This document shows, in pieces, positions 29,831 through 54,204 of a stretch of DNA of 64,000 nt. The notes under the pieces are model-generated. The model made no database searches and was not told where the DNA came from. It saw nothing but the letters and a program-made list of their open reading frames with translations. The stretch is taken from the IMG/VR virus record IMGVR_UViG_2724679237_000005, positions 32,001 through 96,000 of that record. One strand, written 5' to 3'. Each line of letters opens with the position of its first letter. Within the stretch, counting starts at the first letter, position 1. The DNA comes from a virus (lineage: Duplodnaviria; Heunggongvirae; Uroviricota; Caudoviricetes). A program made the translations under genes and the position numbers.

Positions 29831-30217
29831 ATGTCTGACAACAAGATTGAATTTATAGAAAGTCGCTATGCTGCTTTTATCGCAGGGCTGATTGAATCCT
29901 CACCTATGAGTCAGGCCCAAATAGCCAGACTTATTGGTTATAAAAATGCCAACAACCTTTCTTTAATTAAAAGTGGCAAAATTCCTTTGCCTATCGATAA
30001 GGTTCGTCCGCTGGCGCTGGCGCTGGGTATTGAGCCAAGTCGTCTTATGATGATGGTGCTGGAAGAACGCCAACCTGAACTCGCAGCATTTTTATACAAA
30101 GAAGGCACCGCTCCTCTTAACGAGGACGAAAAACAGGTTCTTGCTGCATATAACGAGCGATTCGGTAAAGAGAAAGGCGCATCACAAAAGGTTGTTGAGG
30201 CCATAAAGTCTCTATGA
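29831..30217 (+). CDS. XRE-family helix-turn-helix transcriptional regulator
   Basis: SQAQIARLIGYKNANNLSLIKSGK HTH; convergent with recombinase gene. Confidence 0.7.
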   Translation: MSDNKIEFIESRYAAFIAGLIESSPMSQAQIARLIGYKNANNLSLIKSGKIPLPIDKVRPLALALGIEPSRLMMMVLEERQPELAAFLYKEGTAPLNEDEKQVLAAYNERFGKEKGASQKVVEAIKSL

Positions 30218-31315
30218 AAAATTTACACGAATAAGCTCTGTTGATAGACGATCTCCCTTGAATTTGTGGTCAATTTCGTCTAAATCCGGTTGCTCTACGA
30301 TTGATGCGATGTACGTCGAGAAACTTTCTAAGGCGTCTCGCATCTCGTCCATATAATCGTGCCGGTCGTAGACCCGATCTATCCCCTCAAGACTGTGGTT
30401 CATGATTTTGCGTGATACCTCCTGGCTTATGCCTAATGCTGGGAAGTAACTACGCGCAGTACGGCGCAAATCTCGGGGTGTAAATGGCTCAAGCTCCATC
30501 AGTTCTGGTCGTTCCAGAATACGACGTAATGCCTGGGCTATTGCCACTTTAGACATAGGAAGGTCTTTCCCGATTTTTTTATTCGAAGGCACGAGCCACT
30601 GGCTATCTTTACCGTATTCGAACAACTCTTCAATGCATGTGCGCATTAATGTGCTTAAAGGCAGCGAATGCTCACGTGCTGACTTGTTTCTTTTGCCTTG
30701 ATTCCAAACCCCACGCTTAAGATTGAACTCACTTTTTTTAGCCCGCAGTACTTCGTCAGGTCGTCTTGCTGATACAAGACACAGCCTGGCCGCCCATTTT
30801 GTACCAGCGCACACATTGAAGTAGTCCCATATATTCCAGAACACCCATACCTCTGCGTCGGTCAGCTTCCGCTCGCGAGGTGTGGGCTTTGCGCCACCGG
30901 CAACTTTGTTTAGTGACATATCGTTTAACGGTGACACGTCTATCATTCCCTGGAAGGCGCACCAGCTAAGGAACTGCTTCATCAGAGAGAAAACGCGGCG
31001 GCCCATAACAATTTTGCCATCCAGTATTAGTGGGTTGACCAGTTGGTTCACCATGAACCTATTAATGTCACTTACTTTTACATCGGCAATGTGCGGCAAA
31101 ACATGTATCAAAATACAATGAACAGCGATCTCTGGCCGACGTCTTGTTATCAGCAGAGATAAGCGAGTGAATAACATGAATGCGTCCGAGAATCTCATGT
31201 CATTGCTGACCTGGGAGATCATAACGGCCTGCATTTGAGATGCTCTTTCGAGATACTCAATCGCCTCTTTTGAGGTGTTCTCCGCAGCGCGTGCTCTGTC
31301 AAAGCTATTTTTCAT
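30212..31315 (-). CDS. tyrosine site-specific recombinase (integrase or resolvase)
   Basis: C-terminal catalytic region with LRRTA, NHS and YDRHDY (R-H-R-Y family layout). Confidence 0.85.
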   Translation of the reverse strand: MKNSFDRARAAENTSKEAIEYLERASQMQAVMISQVSNDMRFSDAFMLFTRLSLLITRRRPEIAVHCILIHVLPHIADVKVSDINRFMVNQLVNPLILDGKIVMGRRVFSLMKQFLSWCAFQGMIDVSPLNDMSLNKVAGGAKPTPRERKLTDAEVWVFWNIWDYFNVCAGTKWAARLCLVSARRPDEVLRAKKSEFNLKRGVWNQGKRNKSAREHSLPLSTLMRTCIEELFEYGKDSQWLVPSNKKIGKDLPMSKVAIAQALRRILERPELMELEPFTPRDLRRTARSYFPALGISQEVSRKIMNHSLEGIDRVYDRHDYMDEMRDALESFSTYIASIVEQPDLDEIDHKFKGDRLSTELIRVNFS

Positions 31316-31945: not shown

Positions 31946-33208
31946 ATGCCTTTTTTAATTTTCATTATTATACTACTGCTCACCGTGATTTTTTGGGATT
32001 GGGTTGTTTTAAATGGTCAAATTGTTGGAACATTGGCTACAGCATTTGCTTTTATAGCAACAGCATGGAATGCCTACGAAGCGAGAAAAAGTGCAAAAGC
32101 AGCTTTTTCAGCCCTTCAATTAACAACAGAATCATTGTTCGAAATGCGAAAGAGTGCATTTAAACAATGGTTTGATTCCTTATTAAATCAACATGATGAG
32201 CTATGTCTTCTTGCAAAACAAATTATCGATAAACGCAAAGTTAATTTAAACAGCGATGAGTTACATAGACTATATTACCCATTGGTAAAACAGCATGAGG
32301 TAATACAGTATGTGAAGCATATTATTAATATTTTTGAGTATGTGGATAGTTCATTTTATATTGATGGGGAATGTCTAAAGGAAAAAAGAGCGTATGTGTC
32401 ACAATTAATTTTCAAAATCCCACCTCAGATGAAGTTGATCATTGCTATCTTTGGATTAAAAATCGATTATTGTGAACATATTAATTCGGGAAAACTGTGT
32501 TGTTTATTGAATAAATATGATTTTTTCAATGATGAAATATTTTTTGATGATGCTTATTCAGATATGCCTTATCTGGATGCATTCATAAACCTTAGATTCA
32601 ACAAAATATTCAAATCTCGAATGATAAATTATTTTGATAATATCATTAAAAGTTATTATGTTCCATCGGACGTTAAAAGGGACTGGATGTTTCGAAACCC
32701 AAAGCTCGTGCCGTCGGTTCTTATGAATTATAAAACTCCTTGTTCTCCTATAATTAATGATTACTTTGAGAAGTTGCCTTTACATGTAAGAAACTACTTT
32801 GAGGAACTACTTAAAACCGCGAATGATAGAGTTACTCATTTTGACGTTTACATCCCACGCCTTATTGGTTGTTCAATCGTGCAACATTACGAAGATGTGC
32901 CTTCCGAAAAAAACAGGTTAAATGACAGGAATGATGTAATAGCTATGGCTGAAGATTACATCGAGAAAAGAAAATATAATCAACTGGATTACATACTTGA
33001 AGATATATACTTCAAGAGTGACGAAGATATAATCCCTGGCCACCATTTGATTGTGGCATTTGATGACTATGAATTTAAATTATCACTCATTAAGATAAAT
33101 GAGAATAAAGATAGCGATAATCTTTTAAATCGAATTTATACTGAATCCAGTAGCATGGTTAAAGAATATAAGCGCGAAATATTAAAACTGGGCGACTATG
33201 TAAAGTAA
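31946..33208 (+). CDS. membrane-anchored protein of unknown function in AT-rich island (candidate defence or exclusion protein)
   Basis: 420-aa ORF, two N-terminal hydrophobic helices, strongly AT-rich versus surroundings, own terminator. Confidence 0.6.
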   Translation: MPFLIFIIILLLTVIFWDWVVLNGQIVGTLATAFAFIATAWNAYEARKSAKAAFSALQLTTESLFEMRKSAFKQWFDSLLNQHDELCLLAKQIIDKRKVNLNSDELHRLYYPLVKQHEVIQYVKHIINIFEYVDSSFYIDGECLKEKRAYVSQLIFKIPPQMKLIIAIFGLKIDYCEHINSGKLCCLLNKYDFFNDEIFFDDAYSDMPYLDAFINLRFNKIFKSRMINYFDNIIKSYYVPSDVKRDWMFRNPKLVPSVLMNYKTPCSPIINDYFEKLPLHVRNYFEELLKTANDRVTHFDVYIPRLIGCSIVQHYEDVPSEKNRLNDRNDVIAMAEDYIEKRKYNQLDYILEDIYFKSDEDIIPGHHLIVAFDDYEFKLSLIKINENKDSDNLLNRIYTESSSMVKEYKREILKLGDYVK

Positions 33209-33400: not shown

Positions 33401-33487
33401 TGGCGGAGAGTAATGGAATCGAACCATCATCGTTTGCACAATGGGACGGTTTTCAAGACCGCTTGAGCACCATGCTCCCTACTCTCC
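33401..33487 (-). tRNA. tRNA-Ser (anticodon UGA), type II with long variable arm
   Basis: hand-folded cloverleaf: acceptor GGAGAGT/ACTCTCC, anticodon loop CTTGAAA, T-loop GGTTCGATTCC, encoded CCA. Confidence 0.75.
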
Positions 33488-33807
33488 AGCTATTGTGATG
33501 GTCGGTGCTGAACTCCGACACAGGGTTGTAGCAAGCCCCGCAAAGCGCGCACTACTGTAGTTGCGGCACATCAGCCTGTGCATTCATCACAATGGTAAGA
33601 TCACTACCTTTCGACCAGTCATTGTGCACATGAACGACGATTAACCGTAATGATATTATCGTTGTGTTGTGAAGCCAGATGCTTATCTTCTGGTTGCTTC
33701 AAAGAGCTGCACTTCCTCACAACGGTAAGAGCACTGGTCTGACTCTATCGATTTACGGCCTTGTGGGTCAGTATCGCCGATTCGCCCAATGCTCTTACCT
33801 GTTGTGT

Positions 33808-33883
33808 TGGTGCCGGTTAACGGACTTGAACCGCTGGCCATTCGCTTACAAAACGACTGCTCTACCAACTGAGCTAAACCGGC
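33808..33883 (-). tRNA. tRNA-Thr (anticodon UGU)
   Basis: acceptor GCCGGTT/AACCGGC, D-arm GCTCAGTTGGTAGAGC, anticodon loop TTTGTAA, T-arm AGCGGTTCAAGTCCGTT, CCA. Confidence 0.8.
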
Positions 33884-33887
33884 AATT

Positions 33888-33974
33888 TGGTGGGGAGTGA
33901 TGGAGTCGAACCACCCGAGTCGCCATGACAGTAGATTTACAGTCTACACCGCTACCTCTACGGACTAACTCCCC
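33888..33974 (-). tRNA. tRNA-Tyr (anticodon GUA), long variable arm
   Basis: acceptor GGGGAGT/ACTCCCC, anticodon arm GTAGA-CTGTAAA-TCTAC, T-loop GGTTCGACTCC, CCA. Confidence 0.7.
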
Positions 33975-33979
33975 TAAAT

Positions 33980-34054
33980 TGGCGATGGTGGGTGGATTCG
34001 AACCACCGACCAGTTGGTTAACAGCCAACTGCTCTACCGCTGAGCTACACCATC
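33980..34054 (-). tRNA. tRNA-Asn (anticodon GUU)
   Basis: acceptor GATGGTG/CACCATC, anticodon arm GTTGG-CTGTTAA-CCAAC, T-arm GGTGGTTCGAATCCACC, CCA. Confidence 0.8.
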
Positions 34055-37500: not shown

Positions 37501-38283
37501 TTACCAACTTCCCCAGCTAATCATCTTGCGCTGATCGCTTTCTAAGCGATAGGGGGCAAGAAGCTCTGTGACATGATTGGTGGCGTATGATTTAGCCTCT
37601 TGCTCTATCATCGGTAATTCGTTAGCAATCCTGACCATCTTCCCAGCAAATTCCGCCATTACGCCATCACATGCCTTACCCGCATCAACAACGATATGCA
37701 CCAGATCCAACTGGCTTTTGCACATGTCCCAAAGAGTCGAATATTCGCTCTCCCTGATTAGGTTTACAGCATCATTAGCCCCTTTATTAATCAAAACCTC
37801 CAACAGATTTGTCGGGGTGACGAAATCGGCTTTCAGAGACAATGTTGGTTCAGCTTTTACCGACAGCAAGTAATCTTCAAAGTTTTGCTTGTCTTCCAGC
37901 AAAGCTAAACTACGCATAGCTCGAATTGATTCTCGAATAACGGCTTCAATATGTTCGTCACCTGGAGGACAGATAATAGTATCTGTATAGATGACTCTGC
38001 CATCAAACCACGCCCCAACCTGCACTTTTAGAGTTCGTAAGTTTTCTTTGCGTACAAAAACAACTAATGCAGAACGTCGTGCATGTGCAGGTTCGCCCCA
38101 TACGCACAACTTAACCTTCAGATAAGGTAGCCCCGGTAGAGGGATCTCGACCAAACGAGTGGCGATATGATCCATTGCCGTATTGACGGCTTTTTCAATG
38201 ATGTCTAGCCGATTGCTCTCGCTGATTTCTAAACCAGTTTTATCAATGATGTTGCAGGCTAATCTCTTAATTTCTTCTTTCAT
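37501..38283 (-). CDS. hypothetical protein
   Basis: 260-aa ORF with AGGAG RBS. Confidence 0.5.
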   Translation of the reverse strand: MKEEIKRLACNIIDKTGLEISESNRLDIIEKAVNTAMDHIATRLVEIPLPGLPYLKVKLCVWGEPAHARRSALVVFVRKENLRTLKVQVGAWFDGRVIYTDTIICPPGDEHIEAVIRESIRAMRSLALLEDKQNFEDYLLSVKAEPTLSLKADFVTPTNLLEVLINKGANDAVNLIRESEYSTLWDMCKSQLDLVHIVVDAGKACDGVMAEFAGKMVRIANELPMIEQEAKSYATNHVTELLAPYRLESDQRKMISWGSW

Positions 38284-38408
38284 ACCAACTCCTAGCTAAC
38301 GGATGAAAGTATTCTTACAAAAACTTAAGTATGTATCTACTTATCATTTTAGATGCAATAGTTCTTTATACTAAGATGCCGGGCATATCCTCAGCCCAGC
38401 ATTCACCT

Positions 38409-38822
38409 TTAATGAGCTACAGCCTCACTGTTGCACATCTTTCTGTAGACCTGCTTATAACGCTGTAAATCATGAGGATCATTAGGTGCCAACGACTTCG
38501 ATAGGATTTTGTATACCACCCCTTTTGAAAACATGCCCTTTGGCTTCATTTCGAGTTCAACAACATATGAGTGATAGCCCACGTATGCACCAAAGCCATT
38601 TTTGGCGTTTAATTCACCACACACAAAGCCTGTCACACTCCCATCATCATGATCAGTCCTGACAAACTTATCTTTCCTAAACATCACCGACGTGGGATCT
38701 TTCATATCATCCGCAATTGCCTGTTGGCCCAGAGTAATAGCCTTCTCGTCTGTAGGCTTACACCCAACTAATGCAAACAAAGACAATAAAGCACCTGTTA
38801 AAATCAACTTCTTTTTGCTCAT
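38409..38822 (-). CDS. lipoprotein of unknown function
   Basis: signal peptide with lipobox LVGC. Confidence 0.6.
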   Translation of the reverse strand: MSKKKLILTGALLSLFALVGCKPTDEKAITLGQQAIADDMKDPTSVMFRKDKFVRTDHDDGSVTGFVCGELNAKNGFGAYVGYHSYVVELEMKPKGMFSKGVVYKILSKSLAPNDPHDLQRYKQVYRKMCNSEAVAH

Positions 38823-39052
38823 TTTGACTTCCCTTTATTTATATTTATCGTAGGTATTAGTTAACCAAAACACGAGCCGTGTCACAATAATTCCATAGCT
38901 CATTATCTCTATCGGTGATTAATATCACATCAACTTTACAGTCCATAAATTAAATTATCAAAGCTGACAGATTAACTAAATTTAAGTACCCTTTTCGCAC
39001 ACTTGACGCTTGCCGCGTCTAAACTATTCATCCTATATCAACAGAAAAAAAC

Positions 39053-40198
39053 ATGAAATACATAAAACCTTCATCGTTGCTGGCATTAACTTTGCTTTTT
39101 AGCTCTGGATTCGTTAACGCAGACAATAAACAAACGCTGATAGAAGCCGCTAACGCAGGTGATACCGCAGCACAAAGTGAGTTAGGGACAAATTATTTGG
39201 ATGGTGTCAATGGTTTTGATAAGGATGTAGTTGAGGCCAAGAAGTGGATTGATCTCGCTGCAGAAAAGGGAGATAAAGTAGCATATTATGCACTTGGAGT
39301 TATGTACACATTTGGCGAGGGTGTAGATAAAGACCTAAATAAAGCTGTTGAGTACTACAAACTTGCGGGGGATGCTCGTGAAGGTAGAGCCTACAACAAT
39401 CTTGGTGCTATTTATCAAAAGGGGATGCTTGGTAAAGTAGATCATGCACTCGCCATTAAATACTTCAAACTAGCCTCTGATGCCGGGTATGTTAAAGCAA
39501 CTTCAGTTCTTGGGGCGTATTACCAATATGGTAAAGGCGTTCAAAAGAATTATAAAAAGGCTTTTACTTATTACAAAAAGGCGGCAGACCAAGGCAGTTC
39601 AGAAGCTATGATAGGATTAGGAATACTATACGATGATGGGTTAGGCGTTAAACGCAATGATGCAGAAGCAGTTAAGTGGTATAAAAAGGCAGCGGAACTT
39701 GGAAACGCCGACGCCATAACCAATCTTGGCATTATGTATGAGAATGGGGAAGGAGTAAAAAAGGACTATAAAAAAGCAGCCGACCTTTATCAGACTGCTT
39801 GCAATAAAGGAGAAAAAAGAGGCTGTGAATACATTACTGAACTGAAAGAAAGCGGAAAATATCGAGTATCTGATTCCAAAGCCAAATCAAAATCAGATGT
39901 ACAGCGACTTATTGCTAAATCCATTGATAAAGGCGTTAACGCAACTTTTACCTGGCAAGGTGATGACGCCACATTCACCGCTAATGGCGGCAAAATTGAC
40001 TGCACTTTCCTAAAGGATTTTTCAGAGAAAGGAGGCAATCTGGCTACCTCGTTTGTTTGCACCGATAACGTTCAAATCATCCTGAAGCAATTCAGAGATA
40101 CCAAGAATGCCTACCTCGCGGTAATGACTGACAACTTCAACACAGAAGTTAAATCATTTTCGGTCAATGTTTACGTGACTAATACTGGTTCAAACTAA
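39053..40198 (+). CDS. secreted Sel1-like repeat (SLR/TPR-like) protein with extra C-terminal domain
   Basis: signal peptide then about 6 repeats of A..W(Y)..AA..G...A...LG.MY..G.GV..D; plus strand, lower GC. Confidence 0.75.
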   Translation: MKYIKPSSLLALTLLFSSGFVNADNKQTLIEAANAGDTAAQSELGTNYLDGVNGFDKDVVEAKKWIDLAAEKGDKVAYYALGVMYTFGEGVDKDLNKAVEYYKLAGDAREGRAYNNLGAIYQKGMLGKVDHALAIKYFKLASDAGYVKATSVLGAYYQYGKGVQKNYKKAFTYYKKAADQGSSEAMIGLGILYDDGLGVKRNDAEAVKWYKKAAELGNADAITNLGIMYENGEGVKKDYKKAADLYQTACNKGEKRGCEYITELKESGKYRVSDSKAKSKSDVQRLIAKSIDKGVNATFTWQGDDATFTANGGKIDCTFLKDFSEKGGNLATSFVCTDNVQIILKQFRDTKNAYLAVMTDNFNTEVKSFSVNVYVTNTGSN

Positions 40199-41371
40199 TG
40201 CTGCTATGCCTTTTACCTTGCTTAAAAGTTCAAGCTGTCGTGAGTAAGGTTTTGCGCAATAGTAGGCTTTGATAATCTTCCCCGGTGTCGCATCGCCGGG
40301 GTCGAGTCCTTCCTCGCCCAAACACGCAACTTTGACATTAAGACCGATACTGGTCAGTCGCCTGGCTGCGGCCATAGTGTTGCGTATAGCTTGCTTTTCA
40401 CTATCCCACATCATGATCACATTACGTAACCCACGCGCCTTGAGCGTCAGGAACGCGCCTAACTGATCTTCTGCATCCTGAGTGGTGTTACCAGATAGAT
40501 GCATCCCGAACGTTCCTATTGGTTCCACGTAATCACGTAATGTTTCTTCGTCAAAAATAGCTCGTTTAACCCCCATAACATCGAACGCCCCCTCACAGAC
40601 AACTACAGTCTGTTTGCCGACTGCATTATGGCCGTTGTAGAGAAACTTACCTGAAGCTGGAAGCTGCATAGGAAAGAGGTAGCGGCGTTCTGCTGTACCG
40701 GTAATGTCTCGTCCCTGAAATGTCTTCATTACCCCATCCAGATCGTAAACCGGTATCAGTATTCGCATATCGAATATCTGCCCTTTTACCTGATCTGTAT
40801 ACGGATCTACATAAGCGTGCTTGCCTTCGACGCAGTATCGTAGGTCAAAATACTTTGCCATTTCAGGTGATATGTTTCGTTCAACCAGATAGTCTGGAAG
40901 ACGGCCATCTATAGGAAGCTCGTAATGACGAGGGAGTGCAACTGGCCCCTCTAACTCGACTGTGCTTGCAAGCACTAGCTCTTCTTTCTTTGGTGCCCAC
41001 CCCTGGGAAAGAAGGGCGTTCTGCACATATTCCTCGAACTGTCGTCGTGATTTGCCGCTGTAGTGCTTGAGGAAGACCAGCTTATTGAACTGAATCTCTT
41101 CGGGATGATCACCAGCGAAGCATTTACCGACGCCACTGGTCAGATTGAAATATACCTTCCAGTTGGAGCTGCCGCATACCGGACACTCTTTGATATTCAC
41201 TTCACGACCGCGAGCACTCACGCCTCCACGTCGATAAACGATACCTTCAGTATCCAACCATTGTTCAAAATCTAATTCGGCAATTAGCTCTTTCAGCTCG
41301 CTCACGATAATTCCACTTTTAACAGGCAATATTGTGACCAACCTAAATGTTGATATAACATAAAGGCTCAT
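40190..41371 (-). CDS. DnaG-like DNA primase (zinc finger + TOPRIM)
   Basis: CPVCGSS...C zinc ribbon, TOPRIM VVVCEGAFD; start taken at internal ATG (ORF-track start is GTG at 41443). Confidence 0.7.
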   Translation of the reverse strand: MSLYVISTFRLVTILPVKSGIIVSELKELIAELDFEQWLDTEGIVYRRGGVSARGREVNIKECPVCGSSNWKVYFNLTSGVGKCFAGDHPEEIQFNKLVFLKHYSGKSRRQFEEYVQNALLSQGWAPKKEELVLASTVELEGPVALPRHYELPIDGRLPDYLVERNISPEMAKYFDLRYCVEGKHAYVDPYTDQVKGQIFDMRILIPVYDLDGVMKTFQGRDITGTAERRYLFPMQLPASGKFLYNGHNAVGKQTVVVCEGAFDVMGVKRAIFDEETLRDYVEPIGTFGMHLSGNTTQDAEDQLGAFLTLKARGLRNVIMMWDSEKQAIRNTMAAARRLTSIGLNVKVACLGEEGLDPGDATPGKIIKAYYCAKPYSRQLELLSKVKGIAALV

Positions 41372-41424
41372 GTGTTTTTCTTTTGTGGTTTGGCAAAAGA
41401 AAAGTTGTTTCACCAATGAATCAA

Positions 41425-41456
41425 GCGTGGAGGTGTTCTCCACGCTTATTTTTTAG
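41425..41456. terminator. hairpin with flanking T/A runs between helicase and primase genes
   Basis: stem gcgtggag/ctccacgc; overlaps the alternative primase GTG start. Confidence 0.35.
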
Positions 41457-52900: not shown

Positions 52901-54204
52901 GCGGATTCAGCAGCAGTTTTGCTCTGAGATGCTGCCGTCGCACTGCCTGCCGCCTCTGTTGCTTTCGTGGATGCCGTCGTGGCGCTGCCCTTCGCTGCTG
53001 ACGCCTGTCTGGTCGCCTCATCTTTTGAAGCAGACGCAGATGATGCCGATGACGCTGCCGAACTGGCGGACGATGCGGCTGCCGTTTTTGAGGATTCTGC
53101 ACGGGTTTCCGACGCTTTCGCGTTCGTTTCGGATGTCTTCGCTGCGGAAGCAGACCTCGCTGCTGCGCTGGCCTGTTCAGTGGCTTCGCCAGCCTTCGTT
53201 GTGGCTGTTGAAGCAGACGATGCGGCACTTTCTGCCGATTTTCCGGCGGCGGTGGCACTGGCTGAGGCCTGCCCGGCACTTGTTGACGCGGCACTGGCAG
53301 ACGACGCAGCCGCTGTTTTTGAGCCTGCCGCAGCCGAGGCGCTCTGTCCCGCTGCCGTTTCAGAAGACCTGGCGTTCGTCTCGGACGTTTTTGCCGCCTT
53401 CGCGGAATTTCCTGCCGCCGTTGCCGAGGAAGCGGCATTACTGGCGCTCGAGGCTGCGCTCGTTTCTGATGATTTCGCTGCCTCTTTTGAGGCCGCCGCA
53501 TCCCGGGCTGAGGTGGCAGCTTCTGACGCCTTCGTGGTCGCGGTGGATGCAGAAGTGGCTGCAGATTTTTGTGACGCTGCAGCATTCGTTTCAGACGTTT
53601 TCGCGGCACCGGCACTGGTGGCCGCCGCGCTTTTTGAGGACTCTGCAGCGGATGCACTTTGAGACGCTTGAGAGGCTTTTTCTCCAGCGGTATTGGCGCT
53701 TTCTGCTGCTGCGGCAGCACTGGCCGCCGCCTCACGAGCTTTGTCGCCAGCAGCATCAATCGCGTCAGTGTTATTTTTATACCACTCAACGTTTTCGTTG
53801 TGCTCGTTGACGATCTGCATTAGCGGCTTAACGGTCACTTCTGTACCGTCTTCACGCTCGATTGTCACCTCATCCAGAGCAGTCAACCAACTGCGCATGG
53901 ACTTGGAATCAGCCGACATACGCGACATTAGTGCTGTAAAGCGCGCGCTAAACTGTGTTAAGTCGCCTTCATAGGTCGTAATGATTCGGCACGGAACTTC
54001 AGACTGAGTTTCGCCGGTATAAGGTTCTGAGAGAACAATGTTCGTATCACTGGTTACGCGCTTGATCTCATACAGCTTATTGTCGGGGCCAATGACGATC
54101 ATCCCCGGCAACACACCATTAGCTGTTACGTTCCAGGCTGTCCCTGCCCCAACCAGAGTATTGCTGCCCTGTGTAAATGTGATAGTACCTTCCCTGTACC
54201 ACAT
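49906..54204 (-). CDS. side tail fiber with C-terminal intramolecular-chaperone-like domain
   Basis: repeated NGNASTATKLQTAR-I-GV-FDGS fiber repeats; long Ala/Ser/Thr-rich region; C-terminal region resembles self-cleaving chaperone domains. Confidence 0.75.
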   Translation of the reverse strand: MWYREGTITFTQGSNTLVGAGTAWNVTANGVLPGMIVIGPDNKLYEIKRVTSDTNIVLSEPYTGETQSEVPCRIITTYEGDLTQFSARFTALMSRMSADSKSMRSWLTALDEVTIEREDGTEVTVKPLMQIVNEHNENVEWYKNNTDAIDAAGDKAREAAASAAAAAESANTAGEKASQASQSASAAESSKSAAATSAGAAKTSETNAAASQKSAATSASTATTKASEAATSARDAAASKEAAKSSETSAASSASNAASSATAAGNSAKAAKTSETNARSSETAAGQSASAAAGSKTAAASSASAASTSAGQASASATAAGKSAESAASSASTATTKAGEATEQASAAARSASAAKTSETNAKASETRAESSKTAAASSASSAASSASSASASKDEATRQASAAKGSATTASTKATEAAGSATAASQSKTAAESAATRAEAAADRAEEIAGAVAMEDASLTTKGVVKLSSAVDSTSESLAATPKAVKVVNDNANSRVPSNRKINGKALTADITLTPKDIGTLNSITMSFSGGAGWFKLATVTMPQASSIVYIALIGGAGYNVGSPHQAGISELVLRAGNGNPKGITGALWKRTAVGLTNFAWINTSGDTYDIYVEIGNYATSVNIHWDCTANASVSIYTSPTYSASKPSSVTDGVVYTMYSTHQKPTPLDIGALPTTGGTVSGPLSVTGGITGTLNGNASTATKLQTARSIGGVGFDGSANINLPGVNTTGNQNTTGNAATATKLQTARKISGVPFDGSTDITLTAAHVAAFARRATGSYADADGGVPWNAESGAYNVTRTGDSYILANFYTGVGSCRTLQIKAHYKNGGLFYRSSRDGYGFESGWEQVYTTGFMPQPADINAPTAAAGWLNSGNGTAFTTAQFITWLNNQGAFTNKHWIARCSWTYANNNYIDDTGCGRIDLSGSVIEVFSNKATSHYTIRVTTTTTSGHGGVNNAEFIYVYNGSDYAPGWRRSYNTRNKPTASDVGALPLSGGTLSGGLTSSGEIVSKYANGFRIAYGNYGFFIRNDGGSTYFMLTASGDTLGSWNSLRPIIINNSSGVVSIGNGLNVTGGVNGSLNGNASTATKLQTARNINGVKFDGSGDININTLVSRGRVTALSGSTQGTAGIQMYEAYNNSYPTTYGNVLHMKGASAAGEGELLIGWSGTSGAHAPVFIRSRRDTTDAAWSAWAQVYTAKDSIPGVNTTGNQNTTGNAATATKLQTARKIAGVAFDGSADITLTAANLNAYTKTEVTNLLSSYASRSSLTGYSGNLDIIAETLVVKSGGSGGFAIWDIGTTTSGANMYIDPNPGINTVWRSTSSRRYKKDIETLQDRYADELLSLRPVWYRSICRGDRKDWGYYGLIAEEVGEIAPQYVHWREPTNNDSPGDISSNGMVAEGVMYERLVVPLIHHIQQLTKRVEELETKLNSPKE
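52760..53770. repeat. low-complexity Ala/Ser/Thr-rich coding repeats inside tail fiber gene
   Basis: GC-rich repetitive codons leave all frames open (source of spurious overlapping ORFs). Confidence 0.6.

Follow-up and report, generated by a model that had tools for sequence, protein, structure and literature searches.

We analysed a 64,000-nucleotide stretch of viral DNA (Caudoviricetes; IMG/VR record IMGVR_UViG_2724679237_000005, positions 32,001 to 96,000), referred to here in its full length as the window, and focused on a locus for which a reading of the sequence alone (the original prediction) had proposed a secreted Sel1-repeat protein and an adjacent lipoprotein as candidate host-interaction or exclusion cargo. 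The open reading frames (ORFs) of the lipoprotein (38409-38822, minus strand) and the signal-peptide Sel1 protein (39053-40198, plus strand) were found where they had been placed, and their opposite orientation, the AT-rich 230-bp spacer between them and the lower GC content of the Sel1 gene were all borne out; the two genes have 42.0% and 40.7% GC, compared with 46.1% for the window. The features of the locus, by position in the window, are as follows.

38345-40205, no strand: accessory module of 1861 bp between a 260-amino acid (aa) backbone gene and the primase gene, delimited by BLAST against Cyrano and PhiR41_1
38409-38822, minus strand: lipoprotein gene, 137 aa, with a modelled mature cystatin/NTF2-like alpha+beta domain (ORF)
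38760-38822, minus strand: predicted lipoprotein signal peptide with lipobox LVGC at residues 18-21 (regular expression and hydropathy)
38823-39052, no strand: AT-rich divergent spacer of 230 bp and 33% GC, presumed to hold promoters for both genes (composition)
39053-40198, plus strand: gene for the Sel1-repeat protein with C-terminal domain, 381 aa (ORF, Pfam Sel1 and phrog_8741)
39053-39121, plus strand: predicted Sec signal peptide, residues 1-23, with a VNA/DN cleavage-type motif (hydropathy and sequence inspection)
39122-39850, plus strand: Sel1-like solenoid of seven helix pairs, residues 24-266 (AlphaFold2 (AF2) and Pfam)
39851-39904, plus strand: K/S-rich linker of 18 residues preceding the C-terminal domain
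39905-40195, plus strand: C-terminal domain, residues 285-381 (97 residues), predicted all-beta (conservation)
40190-40198, no strand: 9 nt over which the Sel1 and primase genes overlap convergently at their 3' ends (ORF coordinates)

The genes flanking the module encode an ATP-dependent DNA ligase, a primase and a DnaB-like helicase. The helicase shares 99.6% identity with its counterpart in Escherichia phage Cyrano/CMS-2020a and 93% with the one in Salmonella phage SSU5, and on this basis we class the window as an SSU5-like phage-plasmid of E. coli. The nearest complete relative is the E. coli plasmid pRM9975-1 (IncFIB, non-mobilizable, 120 kb), in which the module is 99.8% identical. BLAST comparison with Cyrano and PhiR41_1, in which the slot is empty, revealed flanks of 90-98% identity on either side of a clean 1861-bp insertion, which has a GC content of 40.1% and takes the place of ~30 bp and the last primase codons of these two elements. 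In SSU5, the same junction holds SSU5_041, an unrelated cytoplasmic protein of 321 aa (L004 3994-4959), and in the Klebsiella element pJN2-26 it holds pJN2-26_0090, an unrelated protein of 388 aa that is hydrophobic at its C terminus, with probable transmembrane segments (L005 8654-9820); in Pfam and PADLOC, neither occupant matched anything significantly, and their best result was a weak match to BnzB (E 0.0056). Since this junction is empty or holds unrelated genes in other relatives, we conclude that the slot between the primase gene and the 260-aa gene is a cargo hotspot. Further, the proposal that the two proteins are cargo with no role in phage replication or morphogenesis agrees with their distribution: both genes are absent from Cyrano, PhiR41_1, CMS-2020a and SSU5 and were found in no phage record searched, and, because Cyrano produces virions without the module (PMC9928086), the phage cycle does not depend on either. 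Of 5426 complete E. coli genomes, 253 (~5%) contain SSU5-like primase-helicase DNA, and 51 of these 253 carry the full module.

The neighbours of the slot have peculiarities of their own. The 260-aa backbone gene (37501-38283, minus strand; phrog_4248) is a hyper-divergent core gene, with only 40-44% identity between genera on replicons whose ligase, primase and helicase are 88-93% identical. The longest ORF of the primase gene (40190-41443, minus strand) starts from the GTG at 41443 and encodes 417 aa, compared with 371 aa and a start equivalent to 41305 in RefSeq relatives, and the C-terminal tail of the primase differs between module carriers and module-free elements.

The original prediction implied that the two genes belong together, and this pairing did not survive comparison with other genera, where each gene was found without the other at the same hotspot. 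The Sel1 gene is alone in the slot in Citrobacter freundii P3 and in most Enterobacter relatives (one copy being split by IS3), and the lipoprotein gene is alone in Cronobacter pCS1 and Enterobacter AKB48, where it lies 32-55 bp behind the primase gene; E. coli elements have both genes or neither. Because each gene occurs without the other in this way, their adjacency in the window reflects two independent acquisitions into one slot. The separate occurrence also rules out a two-component system made up of the two genes.

We next consider whether the genes are maintained. Both are kept in ~55 plasmids, and Nei-Gojobori estimates among E. coli variants gave ratios of nonsynonymous to synonymous substitution (dN/dS) of 0-0.04 for the lipoprotein gene and 0.14-0.23 for the Sel1 gene overall (0.04-0.13 for its C-terminal domain and 0.13-0.27 for its repeats). 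This conservation and the ratios well below 1 indicate that they are more than chance ORFs, and we conclude that both are maintained as functional genes under purifying selection. Between genera, both diverge faster than the replication genes of the same replicons, with protein identities of 59-62% compared with 91-93% for primase and helicase and dN values of ~0.3 compared with 0.05, i.e. ~6 times faster. It could be argued that the module is decaying or selfish passenger DNA of no use to phage or host, given that ~80% of E. coli SSU5-like elements are without it and that disrupted natural copies are frequent: the lipoprotein gene is frameshifted or truncated in variants from E. coli phage-plasmids (P0002 and P0004, one cluster having 20 members), and there are IS3 and IS1 insertions, with Sel1 genes split by ISSen4 or IS1 (L006 1469-3947; H104). 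However, this idea is already largely refuted by dN/dS values of 0-0.23, which show that intact copies are under strong purifying selection. Reading frames, Cys pairs and export signals are also retained across genera, and we consider the idea highly improbable. Overall, the module very probably comprises two independent accessory genes of the "moron" type that are dispensable cargo.

An envelope location had been proposed for the two proteins and is still their natural reading, as both carry predicted Sec-type export signals. In the lipoprotein, a basic N terminus (MSKKK) and a hydrophobic core precede the lipobox LVGC with Cys21 and a Lys residue at position +2; the lipobox conforms to the pattern [LVI][ASTVI][GAS]C, and its Cys is nearly invariant in 102 homologues. 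In Enterobacteriaceae, the residue at +2 sorts lipoproteins according to the Lol rule, Lys, not Asp, directing them to the outer membrane. Because Lys, not Asp, is found here, the protein would be lipidated at Cys21 and sorted to the outer membrane. A single-sequence search found 5 relatives of the lipoprotein, and a search with a profile built from six orthologues raised the number to 376, all of them without a Pfam domain. The invariant positions of the family are D41, S44, C67, K73, G77, Y79, G81 and C129 when the initiator Met is not counted (family numbering plus one gives gene numbering, i.e. Cys68 and Cys130), and part of them fall in the motif CGxxNAKNxFGAYxG. The AlphaFold model (predicted local distance difference test (pLDDT) score 85.7, and >93 over most of the mature domain) consists of a helix, four antiparallel strands and a C-terminal helix, in which C67 and C129 are positioned such that they could form a disulfide and the beta2-beta3 hairpin holds the invariant motif.

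The model shows a cystatin/NTF2-like fold class for the mature lipoprotein. The likeness to cystatin/NTF2/VirB8-like domains, with 4-14% identity, is one of fold class only: unlike these domains, the lipoprotein has no QxVxG and has an extra C-terminal helix that would be pinned by the disulfide, and it does not belong to the cystatin superfamily as characterized by the QxVxG inhibitory loop and papain-like peptidase inhibition. Foldseek returned no PDB match at an E value of 0.001 or better, and no PADLOC match was found. Two other identities were tried and rejected. First, the match to the conjugative entry-exclusion protein EexN (NCBIfam, E 0.17) extends over no more than the signal peptide, and an entry-exclusion role does not suit a non-mobilizable replicon. 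Second, a spanin or Rz1-type lysis lipoprotein does not fit, as the mature part is a folded domain of 116 residues and relatives of the phage-plasmid have their own annotated Rz1.

The genomic contexts of the lipoprotein family that we sampled are all mobile. In prophages of Salmonella, Citrobacter and Comamonas, relatives separate the tail assembly chaperone gene from the tape-measure gene, and in Klebsiella, Serratia and the Salmonella phages SEN4/SEN5 they follow ogr where a P2-like prophage ends; a Halomonas relative lies inside an integrase/VapE island. Further, more distant phages have fusions of the core domain, with a SPOR domain in Pseudomonas phage AUS531phi, in a gene between tail genes K and I, and with a PG_binding_1 domain in Paracoccus phage Pkon1, in a gene adjoining the tape-measure gene. 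These fusions put the probable site of action of the core domain beside the peptidoglycan. We note that the lipoprotein thus belongs to a widespread temperate-phage accessory family that has no family name yet.

The Sel1 protein scores 175 bits for the Pfam Sel1 family (PF08238), whose cut-off is 30.7 (E 1.1e-52; six repeat matches), and the AlphaFold model of its solenoid (residues 23-266) has seven helix pairs at a pLDDT of >90; the last repeat contains a Cys250-Cys258 pair. Equivalents of its N terminus are present in the Citrobacter protein and in P0126 and P0129. The full length is covered by phrog_8741 (E 6.6e-205), for which no function is annotated, and residues 267-381 had no match in profile searches of Pfam, NCBIfam and the PDB. 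By these matches, the protein is a bona fide PF08238 member with a third of its length outside any family. An extra C-terminal domain of about 130 aa had been predicted; an extra C-terminal part is indeed present, but it is 115 residues long (267-381) and consists of the 18-residue linker and a 97-residue domain. Structure prediction, which had been proposed as a check on this domain, gave an all-beta AF2 model from a shallow alignment, but at a pLDDT of 30-54 the model is unreliable. Conservation within the protein is highest in this domain, with 74-77% identity compared with 55% for the repeats, and two of its Cys residues, 317 and 336, are invariant. Both module genes are already represented in RefSeq (as "tetratricopeptide repeat protein" and "hypothetical protein") and in PHROGs, with no function given.

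The C-terminal domain is rare. A phmmer search found nine representatives among 1.84 billion sequences, of which seven are genuine: six carry or are fragments of Sel1-repeat proteins, and the seventh (P0006) is a decayed chromosomal remnant. The other two (P0130 and P0131) were rejected as spurious repeat matches to proteins with an Ig-like "TFTW.GD" motif. In PLSDB, 87 plasmid records, all non-mobilizable and from Escherichia, Enterobacter and Citrobacter, contain a homologue of the domain, and the matches listed are 107-144 kb in size except for one record of ~70 kb. The two most divergent carriers (37-44% identity) are on short metagenomic contigs (L036 294-2327; L037 1-1418), directly upstream of a PF03090 plasmid replicase gene; no complete small plasmid with such a divergent gene was found in PLSDB. 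Among complete plasmids, only SSU5-like elements have the domain, and the Sel1 protein with this domain is essentially confined to them. Damaged copies are known from elsewhere, namely a gene split by IS3 in a prophage/Rep3 region of Enterobacter kobei, a frameshifted gene in Pantoea and a decayed module fragment in the trp-ompW...tonB region of the E. coli chromosome (L014 7796-8641; 85-90% identity). The latter retains the Sel1 3' end with the C-terminal domain, the primase 3' end and, from the lipoprotein gene, 98 bp, and it explains the 3 chromosomal places among the E. coli module matches. That copies of the Sel1 gene outside phage-plasmids have decayed suggests that the gene benefits the element.

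Alleles of the Sel1 gene have 7 or 8 repeats. In pTLYA-2 (E. coli), the allele has eight repeats and, compared with that of the window, is 80-90% identical over the N-terminal 120 residues, 40-65% over the central repeats and 92-100% over the C-terminal domain; the neighbouring lipoprotein is identical. The central repeats are thus mosaic between E. coli alleles and are exchanged as a cassette, with the C-terminal domain held constant.

EsiB binds secretory IgA, and Legionella LpnE and the Helicobacter Hcp proteins act on host cells. One possibility is accordingly that the Sel1 protein acts at the cell surface or in the medium by binding a molecule of the animal host, so that lysogenic conversion would contribute to colonization or virulence. 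Its nearest solved repeat relatives are secreted or host-interacting and include E. coli EsiB (4bwr, E 6.8e-64) and a Legionella protein (6deh), alongside proteins from Oxalobacter and the immunity protein PA5087 (5jkp, E 9e-13), and the module carriers come from cattle, pig, poultry and human guts. However, the similarity is of consensus level and limited to the repeats, EsiB is without the C-terminal domain, and the Sel1 protein has only a Sec signal with no secretion system nearby. The same gene is also found in wastewater and soil isolates, its copies outside phage-plasmids are decayed, and the lipoprotein family occurs in phages of genera that are not animal-associated (Paracoccus, Comamonas and Halomonas). 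We therefore hold a role as an animal-host factor to be quite unlikely. Indirect evidence, namely the moron slots of the lipoprotein's relatives and their fusions to peptidoglycan-binding domains, leans away from animal-host interaction and towards a periplasmic protective or exclusion role, especially for the lipoprotein.

A second possibility is that the Sel1 protein, and perhaps the lipoprotein, are orphan immunity proteins that neutralize periplasmic toxins (phospholipases or peptidoglycan hydrolases) delivered through type VI secretion (T6SS) or as bacteriocins and thereby protect the host in the crowded gut. Klebsiella Sel1E is a proven T6SS immunity protein against VgrG4 (PMC7108748), the match to PA5087 is to a solved immunity protein, and the predicted periplasmic location, the variable repeat cassette joined to a constant domain and the putative peptidoglycan-proximal domain of the lipoprotein would suit such a function. 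Against this, the sampled contexts of both families are without T6SS, effector or bacteriocin genes; the informative ones are all phage, plasmid or mobile-element contexts, and no T6SS genes of the kind that accompany Sel1E or PA5086-5088 were found beside the gene in the window or in its homologue contexts. Further, many unrelated Sel1 proteins give a stronger match than PA5087, whose similarity comes from the consensus of the repeats. We consider orphan immunity unlikely.

More generally, the protein shares with exported Sel1 proteins (EsiB/c5321, Hcp, LpnE/EnhC, PA5087, Sel1E and Vibrio MotX) a predicted Sec signal, a repeat solenoid and a probable disulfide in the last repeat, and its Pfam and PDB matches extend over residues 26-266. 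Compared with EsiB-type proteins, it alone has the 97-residue C-terminal domain, which is predicted to be beta-rich and to contain a disulfide, and its gene is on a phage-plasmid and not beside an effector, flagellar or virulence locus. Neither module protein belongs to a defence system in PADLOC, in which the Sel1 protein had only a weak repeat-level match to PtuA (E 5e-6 over 50 residues).

How the genes are expressed bears on when they would act. The Sel1 gene is antisense to helicase-primase-ligase transcription, and its 9-nt overlap with the primase gene is also present in Citrobacter P3, pRM9975-1 and the chromosomal remnant L014. The spacer contains, ~70 nt upstream of the Sel1 start codon, the block CTGACA-17 nt-TA(A/C)CCT, which is kept between the E. 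coli and the Citrobacter/Enterobacter alleles, whereas the remainder cannot be aligned between these lineages, which lends modest support to a dedicated Sel1 promoter. Our scans found no terminator between the two genes, and such inverted repeats as the spacer has are unremarkable.

T5 Llp and T4 Sp/Imm work early in infection. The two proteins could in this light be lytic-cycle helpers that are produced with the replication genes and modulate cell-wall enzymes or mask receptors, with an effect on lysis timing or by preventing re-injection into infected cells and debris. The lipoprotein gene is co-oriented with the helicase-primase operon and, in the lipoprotein-only arrangements, is close behind it, relatives of the lipoprotein lie inside the late tail operons of other phages, and helicase-primase is not among the listed prophage-expressed genes of Cyrano, itself a module-free element (PMC9928086). 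However, the genes are dispensable and absent from productive relatives, the Sel1 gene runs antisense to the operon behind its own AT-rich upstream region with the conserved promoter-like block, and the lipoprotein gene follows ogr at the prophage end in P2-like prophages. A lytic helper function is in our estimation improbable.

The closest known kind of gene to those of the module is the phage moron or lysogenic-conversion gene. Extra DNA relative to close relatives and a differing base composition, by which morons are recognized (PMC3594210), are both found here (40.1% compared with 46.1% GC). [quoted passage not shown] Like HK97 gene 15, lambda bor and lom, phi80/N15 cor and T5 llp, the two genes are present or absent between near-identical genomes, have a lower GC content than their surroundings and encode small products that are predicted to be envelope-targeted. 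The founding moron, HK97 gene 15, encodes a superinfection-exclusion protein and lies in the slot between the tail chaperone and tape-measure genes (PMC3594210), which is also used by lipoprotein relatives. One difference is that the slot in the window is in the replication module of a phage-plasmid. Further, tests for homology to the characterized proteins Cor, T5 Llp and HK97 gp15 were negative, and gp15, Bor, Cor and Llp have no sequence or fold relationship to the module proteins.

We tentatively favor the view, while giving it somewhat less than an even chance, that the module protects its carrier at the envelope stage, mainly through superinfection exclusion. This is favored because the lipoprotein family uses moron slots, because its domain is linked to peptidoglycan-binding modules, because both proteins combine fast divergence with purifying selection and because Sel1 copies with the C-terminal domain have decayed outside phage-plasmids, which suggests a benefit to the element itself, an incoming related phage being for it an incompatible plasmid as well. 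In the proposed mechanism, the lipoprotein would be exported by Sec, lipidated at Cys21 and anchored at the inner face of the outer membrane, where it would present a small, disulfide-pinned cystatin/NTF2-like domain near the peptidoglycan. The Sel1 protein would likewise be exported by Sec and presumably released into the periplasm as a seven-repeat binding solenoid with exchangeable central repeats, joined to a constant beta-rich C-terminal domain. Each protein would act as a stoichiometric periplasmic binder or inhibitor that guards the cell and the resident phage-plasmid. The prime target would be other phages, for example through a block of their tail-borne cell-wall hydrolases or of the DNA-entry step, and exclusion could also avert displacement of the phage-plasmid by an incompatible relative. 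T4 Spackle (Sp) is a periplasmic inhibitor of the cell-wall hydrolases of incoming phages; it is a mechanistic analogy only, but a small exported protein on the peptidoglycan side would fit the SPOR and PG_binding_1 fusions. Within the SSU5-like group, a Klebsiella plasmid reduces phage burst and plasmid uptake (PMC8969562).

Several observations weigh against envelope-stage protection. First, we found no functionally characterized homologue of either protein and no annotated PHROG match, and the literature yielded nothing specific on Sel1 proteins in phage-plasmids or on the lipoprotein. Second, the slot analogy to HK97 gp15 is positional only. Third, a promoter consensus scan of the spacer gave matches at chance level, and, because the lipoprotein gene is 32-55 bp behind the primase gene in Cronobacter and AKB48, it may be expressed with lytic replication genes and not from the prophage. 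Fourth, the model of the C-terminal domain is of the low pLDDT given above. Last, since module-free elements are so common in E. coli, any benefit must be conditional.

A bolder form of the protective role is that the lipoprotein family, with >370 clusters in phages of Gamma-, Beta- and Alphaproteobacteria, constitutes a new envelope-stage exclusion or periplasmic-immunity class of peptidoglycan-proximal inhibitors in moron slots, and that the Sel1 protein is its phage-plasmid-specific counterpart, with swappable repeats setting target specificity and the constant C-terminal domain docking to a conserved envelope component. We regard this form as doubtful.

Elsewhere in the window, we observed a second cargo-like ORF at 31946-33208 (plus strand; 420 aa, 32.5% GC), which has a hydrophobic N terminus with a probable membrane-spanning segment and no PADLOC match. 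Its neighbours are a glutaredoxin-like ORF and, at 30212-31315 (minus strand), a 367-aa ORF that on inspection alone looks like a tyrosine recombinase. Four tRNA genes (Ser-TGA, Thr-TGT, Tyr-GTA and Asn-GTT) are clustered at 33401-34054 (minus strand), and positions 53001-54000 are a compositional outlier, with 58% GC and an AT skew of -0.28 compared with ~46% GC elsewhere.

As it stands, the finding is one of well-documented, ordinary accessory cargo and a lead for envelope-stage exclusion. SSU5-like phage-plasmids spread resistance and other traits, and the content of their variable slots helps to explain how the lineages persist. As the lipoprotein family is common in prophages of Salmonella, Klebsiella and Enterobacter, any phenotype would be widely applicable. 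If the module proteins do block phage entry or periplasmic toxins, they would represent an envelope-stage protection family that catalogues of defence systems have missed, and this would be relevant to the prediction of host range in phage therapy.

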